Positions 4,901 to 7,335 of a DNA stretch of 9,905 nucleotides are shown here, one piece after another. The stretch's first letter is position 1. Every line of letters begins with the position of its first letter. Origin of the DNA: a virus (Duplodnaviria; Heunggongvirae; Uroviricota; Caudoviricetes); the IMG/VR virus record IMGVR_UViG_2711768022_000003; one strand, written 5' to 3'. The notes under the pieces are model-generated. The model was not told the DNA's origin, made no database searches, and was given only the letters and a program-made list of their open reading frames with translations. Both the position numbers and the translations under genes were made by a program.

Positions 4901-5115
4901 TATTCACCTCTCGCAGCCTTACGCTTGTCTTCTCTTATTTTGAAATACAGATTTGTCAGATAAGTCAGAAGCCCCAGAAGCAGACTTCCCAGCACACCAA
5001 TCGCAGCCCACTGTGATGGACTGACCTGATCCAACCACTGCAAAAACCAGTAGCCGGCACTGCCGGCGGAGGTGCCGTAGGCAATGCCTGTTGATATTTT
5101 TTCCATCTGATACAT
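4900..5115 (-). CDS. Class II holin / pinholin (S21, EssD-like), 71 aa with dual-start motif
   Basis: Translation [71 protein letters not shown] resembles phage 21 S21 and DLP12 EssD as recalled. Met1 and Met4 give the typical antiholin/holin dual start. Two TM segments and a charged C-terminus. Confidence 0.9.
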
Positions 5116-5144
5116 ATCCCGCCCCCCGACAGACCTGTGCTATC

Positions 5145-5182
5145 GGAAAGAAAAAAGGCCATCAGCAAAACTCTGATGGCCT
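5145..5182 (-). terminator. Rho-independent terminator upstream of the lysis cassette
   Basis: Perfect 9-bp stem ggccatcag (5157-5165) / ctgatggcc (5173-5181) with 7-nt loop; on the minus strand it is followed by TTTTTTCTTTCC (complement of 5145-5156). Confidence 0.65.
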
Positions 5183-5290
5183 GAATCACCTTTACCAATA
5201 TTGTATGAAAAAACACGCACGACTAATTGACAATAATTTTCATTTCCATTAAAAAAGATCGCGTAGCATTCTTAATTCATGAGGAACTTT

Positions 5291-5356
5291 ACCCGCCAGC
5301 AATCTGAGTAGCGAAAGCTGTTCATCCCCAATGTTTTTGCTGGCGGGTCCTTTTTT
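5291..5356 (+). terminator. Plus-strand-oriented terminator-like hairpin (11-bp perfect stem plus T6)
   Basis: acccgccagca (5291-5301) pairs perfectly with tgctggcgggt (5338-5348). The 36-nt loop contains an agc-GAAA-gct mini-hairpin. The stem is followed on the plus strand by cc + tttttt (5351-5356). On the minus strand no T-tract follows. Confidence 0.3.
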
Positions 5357-5795
5357 CTACGGTCCTCCTCCCCGGAGGGGGGCATTTCATTATTTTTCTA
5401 ATCGTTACTGGTGAGAAGGCGGAAGAAAAAGCCAGTTCTTCGCCCCTAAATAACAGCATGATTCCAGTCCATGCAAAATCTGATTTCCAGCTCACACATA
5501 CCGAGCACTGTACAAAAAACCGCCAGCCAAGGCAGTTAAGAGTGTGTTCCCGGGGTTTGCTTAGAATATTTTGTAAGTTGTCCGAAGAGATATTTACAAC
5601 ACCAGAATGATGAATCATCAGTCCCCTGCCAGAGGTTCACTACGTAACCTGACCGACAATGCACCATTCTGGTGCTGAAAAAAGAGCACTGGAACTGCAA
5701 CAAAACAACATCACAGAACAGGAGATGGTAAGGAGTCAGACATTCCCACACAATATTGTGTCAGTGCAAATAACAACCTTCGTCTCAAATCTCGC

Positions 5796-5870
<75 letters not shown>

Positions 5871-5873
5871 ATA

Positions 5874-5949
<76 letters not shown>

Positions 5950-5951
5950 GC

Positions 5952-6028
5952 TGGCCCACCACCGAGGACTCGAACCTCGCACCGTCAACTTAGAAGGTTG
6001 ATGCTCTATCCGGATGAGCTAGTGGTGG
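5952..6028 (-). tRNA. tRNA-Arg (anticodon UCU), 77 nt
   Basis: CCACCACTAGCTCATCCGGATAGAGCATCAACCTTCTAAGTTGACGGTGCGAGGTTCGAGTCCTCGGTGGTGGGCCA: acceptor CCACCAC/GTGGTGG, anticodon loop CTTCTAA, T-loop TTCGAGT, CCA encoded. Unusual C1-G72 first pair. Confidence 0.8.
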
Positions 6029-6029
6029 T

Positions 6030-6106
6030 TGGTGGCCCTTGCTGGACTTGAACCAGCGACCTGGCGATTATGAGTCGCTCGCTCTGACCAACTGAGCTAA
6101 AGGGCC
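6030..6106 (-). tRNA. tRNA with CAU anticodon, most likely tRNA-Ile2 (lysidine type, reads AUA), 77 nt
   Basis: GGCCCTTTAGCTCAGTTGGTCAGAGCGAGCGACTCATAATCGCCAGGTCGCTGGTTCAAGTCCAGCAAGGGCCACCA. Anticodon arm GCGACTCATAATCGC and T-arm GGTCGCTGGTTCAAGTCCAGC resemble E. coli ileX rather than elongator Met as recalled. Ile-versus-Met identity cannot be settled without a classifier. Confidence 0.8.
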
Positions 6107-6859: not shown

Positions 6860-7065
6860 AGACATGTCCTTTCGAATATTTTGATTTACCCCTTTTGAGA
6901 GGGTGACCGGGCGCTCAAAACCGTCGAAAGTCGGCGGGCGTATTTCCATTGCTGGTATTGTATTAGCCGCACACCCGGTCATAAACCAAGAATTCTGGAC
7001 ACAAAAAAACCACATGGCTATCGGGTGTGGATACCGCTTTCGAGGTGTTTTGAGCACCGCGGGGA

Positions 7066-7094
7066 AATGTAAACTGCAAACCTGAAACTGTCAA
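7066..7094 (-). promoter_or_regulatory. Candidate sigma70 promoter for the ORF6N moron
   Basis: Minus strand: perfect -35 TTGACA (complement of 7089-7094), 17-bp spacer, -10 TACATT (complement of 7066-7071). About 200 nt upstream of the ORF6N start. Confidence 0.3.
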
Positions 7095-7218
7095 CACCGT
7101 CAGGTTCCAATCATCGGGTGGTGAGACGCACAGGGTTGGAACTACCGGGAAACCGACCGGCGAGCTTTTCAGCTCCCCCATGCGCCCCACCATAATTCAG
7201 ATGTGCGCGTGCATACGA

Positions 7219-7244
7219 CAATAAAAAACACGCTCGCGGCGTGT
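7219..7244 (-). terminator. tR'-like terminator downstream of the late promoter
   Basis: Stem acacgc (7228-7233) / gcgtgt (7239-7244) with 5-nt loop; on the minus strand it is followed by TTTTTATTG (complement of 7219-7227). About 75 nt downstream of the predicted pR' -10. Confidence 0.45.
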
Positions 7245-7305
7245 GTCTGTCGCGGTCTCTATCCGGGGTTCCAATCCCGACGCCAGATTTTGCTGGCGCG
7301 TGAGG

Positions 7306-7335
7306 AATATAGCCCCGGACAATGTGTCTGGTCAA
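7306..7335 (-). promoter_or_regulatory. Late promoter pR'-like (probable Q-utilisation region)
   Basis: Minus strand: -35 TTGACC (complement of 7330-7335) starts 5 nt after the Q stop; 18-bp spacer; -10 TATATT (complement of 7306-7311). Position immediately downstream of Q matches lambdoid pR'. Confidence 0.5.

Follow-up and report, generated by a model that had tools for sequence, protein, structure and literature searches.

Which product, if any, is encoded opposite to the late genes just upstream of the holin gene of a lambdoid prophage? The question arises from IMG/VR record IMGVR_UViG_2711768022_000003, a stretch of 9,905 nucleotides of a tailed virus (Caudoviricetes), hereafter called the window, which represents the late region of a lambdoid prophage from E. 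coli. A first-pass annotation had suggested a plus-strand small RNA (sRNA) gene, convergent with the late transcript upstream of the holin. In our analysis this is the best-supported explanation, given the joint conservation of promoter and terminator, the slower divergence, the lack of an open reading frame (ORF) and the relatives in the same slot. Positions 5227-5356 are probably an autonomous plus-strand gene for a non-coding RNA of about 95 nt, here named W, which would be a prophage sRNA of the PasA/PasC type.

In pathogenic E. coli, host regulation is rewired by a number of prophage sRNAs, among them AgvB, AsxR, PasA-D and Esr41. The catalogues of these RNAs were so far obtained from few enterohaemorrhagic (EHEC) and enteropathogenic (EPEC) E. 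coli strains.

Location, predicted promoter and terminator of W

The W unit sits inside a gap of 680 bp between the tRNA genes and the holin gene. On the late strand its span corresponds to 146-241 nt upstream of the class II holin start, with full complementarity to the late transcript. An RNA of roughly 90 nt at 150-250 nt upstream of the holin had been proposed before. The position agrees with our data, and the predicted size is about 95 nt. The coordinates of all features are listed in Table 1.

Table 1 Features of the holin-upstream region (positions of the window)
Feature	Position	Strand	Remarks
-35 hexamer TTGACA of the predicted sRNA promoter	5227..5232	+	Invariant in all W-class copies; common to classes S and B, PasA and PasC
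-10-like hexamer TAAAAA, without final T	5250..5255	+	17 nt after the -35 hexamer; same CATTAAAAA(A) in class S of Sakai Sp5
Predicted sRNA W, about 95 nt	5261..5356	+	5' end inferred at 5261 +/- 3 from promoter geometry; 3' end in the T-run
Terminator stem, 5' arm ACCCGCCAGCAA	5291..5302	+	12 bp, 100% complementary; holds the GCCAGC core of the whole slot family
Inner 8-bp helix (5305-5312/5317-5324) with GAAA tetraloop	5305..5324	+	Inside the terminator loop; from folding
GTTCATCCC	5320..5328	+	Identical in classes W and B although the loop around it differs
Terminator stem, 3' arm TTGCTGGCGGGT	5337..5348	+	No variable site in 29 distinct W-class copies
T6 run, end of the plus-strand intrinsic terminator	5351..5356	+	T5-T8 kept in all classes
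Second hairpin, outside the conserved unit	5362..5383	+	T5 at 5393-5397 also present here
Late-strand intrinsic terminator, 10-bp stem 5156-5182 and T-run	5148..5182	-	About 35 nt upstream of the holin start; part of the 380-bp module
Holin-upstream module, 380 bp, conserved, carries the W unit	5116..5496		Homology to other prophages stops at about 5496
Class II holin gene, 71 aa	4900..5115	-	ORF and RefSeq annotation of a 99.8%-identical record; first gene of the lysis cassette

The predicted promoter was compared with the sigma-70 consensus, i.e. TTGACA, a spacer of 16-18 nt and TATAAT, in which position 2 should be A and position 6 should be T. The -35 hexamer agrees in 6/6 positions, the spacer has 17 nt and the -10 hexamer agrees in 4/6 positions (A2 present, T6 absent). 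Both hexamers and the spacer were read at the same positions as in the first-pass annotation. The combination TTGACA-N17-TAAAAA occurs once in the window, with 0.00 matches expected from 200 dinucleotide shuffles. TTGACA alone is not enriched (3 matches, 6.45 expected). The A-run of the -10 region (5250-5256) comprises 5 or 6 A between near-identical copies, in both the W and the S class. A promoter-like site on the minus strand (5417-5389), which would give a late-strand RNA of about 235 nt ending at 5148, was rejected, since neither its hexamers nor its spacing are conserved.

The terminator stem consists of 12 perfect base pairs, eight of them G-C, with 34 nt between the arms and CC between the stem and T6. 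An 11-bp stem with a loop of 36 nt had been described earlier; perfect pairing and the T6 run could be confirmed, and the lengths had to be corrected. The structured nature of the loop was also confirmed, as folding yields the inner helix capped by GAAA. Stem and T-run correspond to an intrinsic terminator (GC-rich stem followed by a T-run), apart from the atypically long loop. The hairpin was missed by a consensus terminator scanner, because its loop exceeds the allowed 3-8 nt. Folding of plus-strand 5260-5400 gave -49.7 kcal/mol (z=-3.88, 0/200 shuffles as good), which is better than the minus strand with -40.9 kcal/mol (z=-2.27). For the predicted W RNA, taken as 100 nt, z was -3.2.

The inner helix can form only in the plus-strand RNA, because its two G.U pairs would be A.C mismatches in the complementary RNA. 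In minus-strand direction TAAAGTT comes after the hairpin, and there is no T-run. Thus, the signal is one-directional and would not stop late transcription. The inner helix is present in W and W2, has 4 bp in class C and is absent in class B, one of the diverged classes described below. Hence, it was rejected as a feature of the slot family and is specific for the W class. The motif GTTCATCCC in the loop is a candidate pairing or protein-contact element.

The second hairpin and the T5 run at 5393-5397 had been named among the signals of the candidate RNA. Both exist in the window, but the hairpin is not conserved in relatives. The 3' arm of this hairpin reads GGAAAA in the 86% class and its G-run (5377-5382) has 4-6 G among near-identical copies; therefore the second hairpin does not belong to the unit. 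Its region is the most variable segment, with 0.56 variable sites.

As a side observation, the stretch TTTTGCTGGCG at the 3' arm of W (5335-5345) recurs on the plus strand inside the isrK match at 7288-7298. W is thus complementary over 11 nt to the 5' end of IsrK (GCGCCAGCAAAA). With about 0.2 matches of this kind expected by chance, the finding is not significant on its own.

Conservation and distribution

Of 5426 complete E. coli genomes, 1427 (about 26%) carry the segment 5215-5400. The matching places number 1555, with 912 of them chromosomal and 643 on plasmids. W is nevertheless unannotated and absent from Rfam. Its carriers include lineages of extraintestinal pathogenic (ExPEC) and avian pathogenic (APEC) E. 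coli, ST95 strains such as IHE3034 and APEC O18, and a group of 9 near-identical genomes with CFSAN029787 among them. Among the 40 matches listed with the annotation below them, three carry a 'hypothetical protein' and most lack any feature. If expressed, W would rank among the accessory sRNAs with the widest distribution in E. coli. The Rfam comparison proposed in the first-pass annotation was carried out with Rfam 15; the W unit gave no match at gathering score (whole window) or at E<=10 (5050-5850). No match to the W unit was found in the INPHARED phage genomes. Among the GTDB species representatives, the loop sequence was detected only in E. coli and Shigella flexneri, other matches being due to chance. 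A full-text literature search for the W sequence found nothing, and a search on antisense RNA, holin and lambdoid prophages gave nothing relevant. The intergenic regions considered as counterparts in E. coli K-12 (essQ-cspB of Qin, nmpC-essD of DLP12) were discarded, as they have no similarity to W, and K-12 itself does not carry the unit.

W was found in prophages, in holin-less remnants and on plasmids carrying iss. In genomes of the sequence type 131 (ST131) type, holin and lysozyme are gone and the module lies between an Rz fragment and an insertion sequence (IS) element. On the ColV-type plasmid p14EC020b (L008, 892-1020) W is part of a remnant of a lambdoid lysis region, and iss precedes it by about 470 nt on the same strand. 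This copy has one G-to-A change, which gives an A.C mismatch in the stem.

Between lineages retrieved by BLAST, the unit 5227-5357 differs by 8-11% and the hairpin with its T-run by 3-7%, compared with 15-21% for the flanks. The difference between hairpin and flanks was significant in five of six lineage pairs (Fisher p 0.0005-0.005). The reduced divergence extends beyond the hairpin and spans the whole unit with the promoter; promoter and terminator are conserved jointly as one unit. In the table of variability for the 29 W-class copies, 19 loop positions are fixed by the retrieval pattern and have to be discounted. The late-strand terminator 5156-5182 is kept in copies with the holin. It is decayed in remnants that lack the holin and on iss plasmids, and the adjacent W unit is intact there.

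PasA and PasC

PasA and PasC are sRNAs of prophages of EPEC E2348/69, which were found by RIL-seq (sequencing of ligated pairs of interacting RNAs), confirmed by Northern blot and shown to depend on Hfq for stability (Pearl Mizrahi et al. 2021, PMC8550237). PasA comprises 85 nt (NC_011601, 743499 to 743415) and PasC 79 nt (PMC8550237, table S6). Both are located opposite to the late genes between an esterase gene and the holin gene, PasA about 214 nt upstream of its holin. As a rule, pasA and pasC have the holin/lysozyme operon as their immediate neighbour (Zhu, Shabalina & Storz 2026, bioRxiv 10.64898/2026.05.13.724894). Their promoters consist of TTGACA, a spacer of 17 nt and an A-rich hexamer (TCAGAA; TGAAAA in the second tandem unit), and the terminators are built on AGCCAGC...GCTGGCT. 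The 5' end of PasA, tabulated from RNA-seq coverage, is located 7 nt after the A-rich hexamer. In the PasA locus, an equivalent late-strand terminator lies between the sRNA unit and the holin. Homologues in EHEC Sakai are EcOnc51 and EcOnc52. The predicted seed of PasA is the GCCAGCA arm of its terminator, which is also the element conserved in W; for PasA, an enrichment of UGCUGGC-type motifs has been found. These validated relatives are abundant, Hfq-dependent RNAs with many partners in trans (PMC8550237).

W shares a number of properties with PasA and PasC. It lies between genes of a lambdoid prophage, next to the holin/lysis operon and, by the orientation of its predicted promoter and terminator, opposite to the late genes. 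TTGACA, a spacing of about 17 nt, a weak A-rich -10 hexamer and a length of 79-96 nt are common to them, as are a 3' stem-loop on a GCCAGC/GCUGGC core with poly-U and a late-strand terminator before the holin. However, W has a structured loop of 34 nt on a 12-bp stem, whereas the loops of PasA and PasC have 11-19 nt. The upstream neighbours are a tRNA cluster and a methyltransferase gene for W, and a sialate esterase gene for PasA and PasC. W is common in ExPEC and APEC lineages and on plasmids; PasA and PasC are enriched in EPEC and EHEC chromosomes. For all Pas genes together only 12 plasmid matches were reported (bioRxiv 10.64898/2026.05.13.724894). The Pas families are delimited by alignment or BLAST similarity to PasA or PasC, and by this definition W falls outside them.

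Further relatives in the holin-upstream slot

The slot in lambdoid prophages was defined as the region flanked by the last moron, i.e. accessory cargo inserted downstream of the late promoter, and by the lysis cassette. Two further classes of units were found there. Class S is located in the Stx2 prophage Sp5 of O157 Sakai (NC_002695.2, about 1272094-1272200, minus strand, L100), between an esterase remnant and ECs_1210. Its promoter TTGACAATAAGAACTGTTTTCATTAAAAA is nearly that of W (similarity reached by 20/1000 shuffles). Its terminator, CCGCCAGCG-N11-CGCTGGCGG-T7, has the same stem with a loop of 11 nt and resembles those of PasC and PasA (z about 5). The class S unit is unannotated; no Rfam model matches it, and the Hfq-CRAC (crosslinking and analysis of cDNA) table has no EcOnc entry for it.

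Class B is a diverged class from a search of IMG/VR with a stem-only pattern. In its locus L085 the unit runs on the strand opposite to the late genes, and its terminator abuts the stop codon of an esterase of the nanS-p type (SASA-family sialate esterase). The TTGACA lies 20 nt from the start of an ORF of 60 aa, which itself precedes a candidate holin ORF of 77 aa according to our reading of the sequence. The slot of class B, from the esterase stop codon to the lysis genes, is that of PasA. Alignment of the 3' hairpins of W and class B gave z=10.3 (0/1000 shuffles). Both share GTAG and GTTCATCCC in loops of equal length; the inner helix is not shared.

The promoter pattern TTGACAATRA-N9-YCATTAAAAA has matches in 83 IMG/VR stretches. 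All distinct sequences from these stretches and from the earlier loci belong to the W class (with the class C variant) or to the S class, i.e. to two different RNA bodies. Each such promoter is followed 60-100 nt downstream by a terminator CCGCCAGC...GCTGGCGG with a T-run (one copy GATGGCGG). As promoter and terminator occur together around differing bodies, one travelling unit with interchangeable bodies is indicated. A likeness of GCTGGCGG in the W 3' arm to the Chi sequence GCTGGTGG was set aside; the Pas members have GCTGGCT.

For covariation analysis 13 terminators of all classes were aligned. The stem is paired to 86.5% across the classes and the GCCAGC/GCUGGC core is invariant. Changes on both sides were detected in 4 of 12 stem pairs (C-G/G-C/A-U; C-G/A-U; A-U/G-C). 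The covariation score of 0.234 compares with 0.110 for column shuffles (0/500) and 0.045-0.144 for slid partners. Compensatory changes, which the first-pass annotation had named as a check of the hairpin, are thus present across the slot family; within the W class the stem is invariant.

These data also bear on the explanation that no discrete sRNA is made. Hairpin and T6 would then only stop plus-strand read-through, e.g. from morons of the bor/iss type with the same orientation. Otherwise the promoter-like hexamers would be inactive, and the unit would be conserved at the DNA level or recently spread. The weak -10 hexamer without final T is in line with this explanation, as is the position of the unit downstream of iss on the same strand of ColV plasmids. 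Furthermore, the diversity of the W class is low, which limits inference. However, the perfect -35 hexamer, its spacing and the terminator are jointly kept in classes whose RNA bodies are unrelated, and the divergence is reduced over the whole unit including the promoter. Related prophages have plus-strand protein genes between lysozyme and holin. These are absent from the window, hence there is no upstream plus-strand gene that needs the W terminator. In addition, slot relatives of the same architecture are abundant RNAs. On balance we consider it decidedly unlikely that no sRNA is made.

Proposed mode of action

For W as a PasA/PasC-type sRNA the following course is proposed. Transcription would begin near 5261, driven by a promoter of the sigma-70 type with a perfect -35, a spacer of 17 nt and a weak, A-rich -10, and the GC-rich 12-bp stem with T6 would end the transcript near 5356. 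The RNA would run opposite to the Q-dependent late operon. By analogy with PasA and PasC, W would most likely be made in the lysogen from its own promoter, and its terminator hairpin and U-tail would probably bind Hfq. It would then pair in trans with mRNAs of the host or the phage; binding of the late transcript would be a possible additional role. We infer transcription, RNA ends, Hfq binding and all targets of W. Since the validated relatives act with Hfq on trans targets, the term 'antisense to the late transcript' describes a geometry and not a demonstrated mechanism.

Alternatively, W could be transcribed and act in cis only. As an antisense RNA or convergent promoter it would damp read-through from the tRNA and moron region into the holin gene in lysogens. 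It could also tune the timing of lysis by forming a duplex with the late mRNA, which RNase III would cleave, in the manner of lambda OOP on cII. This is consistent with the perfect complementarity of W to the part of the late transcript that precedes the holin. W also lies between two late-strand terminators, at 5518-5537 and 5156-5182, which suggests a module built to insulate the lysis genes. Moreover, the RIL-seq partners of PasA include the 3' end of the adjacent esterase mRNA. In contrast, promoter and terminator are intact in remnants and plasmids without the holin and the late operon. The RNA body is wholly different between classes of the same slot; therefore the complementary late-strand sequence is not what is conserved. 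W does not overlap the region of the holin translation start, and pairing to that region was no better than with shuffles. The validated relatives also have many trans partners. An action in cis only seems unlikely to us.

Lambda OOP is a cis-antisense RNA of 77 nt to the cII mRNA with RNase III-dependent action. Both W and OOP are short phage RNAs with an own promoter (predicted for W) and intrinsic terminator, complementary to the transcript of a major phage operon. OOP overlaps a coding region, whereas W faces only an untranslated leader, in another region and with another sequence. Unlike OOP, W persists where its cis target is deleted.

Several points weigh against W as an sRNA of the PasA/PasC type. 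The -10 hexamer lacks the highly conserved final T, as already stated in the first-pass annotation, and the consensus promoter scanner omits the site because it demands T at this position. A terminator with a structured loop of 34 nt is atypical. The 5' end of PasA may be a processing site (bioRxiv 10.64898/2026.05.13.724894), which weakens the claim that the promoter architecture sets the 5' end. In local alignments of W with PasA, PasC and the second unit of the PasA locus, the scores were no better than those of shuffles. The link between W and the Pas sRNAs is a chain, namely W to B by z=10.3, W to S by the promoter (20/1000) and S to PasC and PasA by z about 5. With this chain through S and B and no direct similarity, the relation is a mosaic chain and not a simple family tree. 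In the Sakai Hfq-CRAC table no peak is listed for the class S unit of Sp5. The wide distribution is partly due to clonal expansion of few lineages. Stem covariation within the W class is missing because the diversity is low.

W would belong to a mosaic set of sRNA genes in the lambdoid slot, of which PasA and PasC (EPEC) and EcOnc51 and EcOnc52 (EHEC) are the experimentally supported members. The comparison suggests a larger, recombining group of sRNA genes at a fixed slot before the lysis cassette, to which PasA and PasC would belong. The common promoter type and terminator core at this slot offer a simple route to further members. More tentatively, W, B, S, PasA and PasC might form one mosaic superfamily, in which a promoter cassette and a GCCAGC(A/G) terminator arm are shared and the bodies are swapped by recombination. 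W would then be domesticated and, under purifying selection, kept in decayed prophages (ST131-type remnants) and on ColV virulence plasmids next to iss, because it would regulate host genes in ExPEC. We regard this extension as doubtful, though conceivable.

Coding potential

All annotated genes are on the minus strand, and no conserved ORF across the W unit was found on either strand. Thus the earlier statement that no plus-strand protein gene explains the signals holds. Alternatively, the unit could code for a protein of very small size, or W could be the antitoxin RNA in a type I toxin-antitoxin pair whose peptide is encoded on the minus strand. Within the predicted RNA there is an ORF of 10 codons (ATG 5282 to TAG 5314), but it lacks a Shine-Dalgarno sequence. 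Compared with the 86% class it has three nonsynonymous and no synonymous changes. In some genomes RefSeq lists a minus-strand 'hypothetical protein' of 63 aa over the region. However, this ORF is neither hydrophobic nor toxin-like, and an interruption in the window leaves only 26 aa of it. The minus-strand ORFs at the W unit have 26-37 aa and are not conserved. A type I antisense RNA was therefore rejected, as there is no conserved hydrophobic toxin ORF on the minus strand.

In K-12 Qin the small-protein gene ynfU (NC_000913.3, 1640805-1640975) is located at an analogous position upstream of essQ on the opposite strand, in the same orientation as W. It is unrelated in sequence, and W has no similarity to this K-12 region. 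Taken together, we find a small protein or a toxin-antitoxin antisense RNA hardly credible.

Comparison with other known sRNAs

The anti-sRNAs AgvB and AsxR (Rfam RF02702 and RF02703; Tree et al. 2014, PMC4104026) are, like W, encoded in prophages, antisense to the late operon and located in the moron region downstream of PR'. Each of them, as well as W, faces a late-strand sRNA-like element, forming a convergent pair. They differ from W in their length of 51-60 nt and in a different conserved 3' domain of about 42 nt. Their slot is the first one, directly after the moron, whereas that of W is holin-proximal. W was not assigned to AgvB or AsxR, as the covariance models gave no match at gathering score or at E<=10 over 5050-5850. 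In Sakai Sp5 the Rfam models of AsxR and STnc100 find their targets, and nothing covers the class S or class B units. No TTGACA-17-TAAAAA motif was found upstream of asxR in Sp5.

Other sRNAs were rejected as well. The probes of PasB and PasD had no match in the window; PasB is located in the tail region, i.e. in another slot. The UTI89 sRNAs PapR and C271 have sequences different from W. The paper on outer membrane vesicle (OMV) sRNAs draws on Rfam only.

Neighbouring features of the window

A stretch of E. coli CFSAN029787 is 99.8% identical to the window. Its RefSeq coding sequences and tRNA genes are all on the minus strand of the window. According to this annotation the order is replication genes, antiterminator Q, DNA methyltransferase, four tRNA genes, class II holin, a pseudogene of the YdfR family, lysozyme, lysis protein and terminase. 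The tRNAs were located at 5796-6106 by ARAGORN and Rfam. The strong late-strand terminator at 5148-5182 is presumably read through by Q-modified polymerase and shields the lysis genes in lysogens.

Upstream of the tRNAs on the late strand, Rfam matches are packed on the minus strand at 6897-7312. They comprise isrK (7223-7299), the C4 antisense RNA (7114-7197), the C4 a1b1 target (7260-7312) and sRNA-Xcc1 (6897-6980).

Another element of about 290 nt follows tRNA-Gly and ends at the late-strand terminator 5518-5537. Copies with about 70% identity occur after similar tRNA clusters in about 224 other E. coli genomes. Within 5518-5795, the minus strand at 5698-5715 reads UGUGAUGUUGUUUUGUUG and matches 17 of 18 positions of the R1 seed region of E. 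coli GcvB. This score was reached by 1/1000 shuffles. The segment differs in both aligned copies of the element, and the Rfam model of AgvB gave no match at this position. Judged by its sequence, the segment could be a phage mimic of the GcvB seed on the late strand or an AgvB-like sponge site for GcvB on the plus strand.

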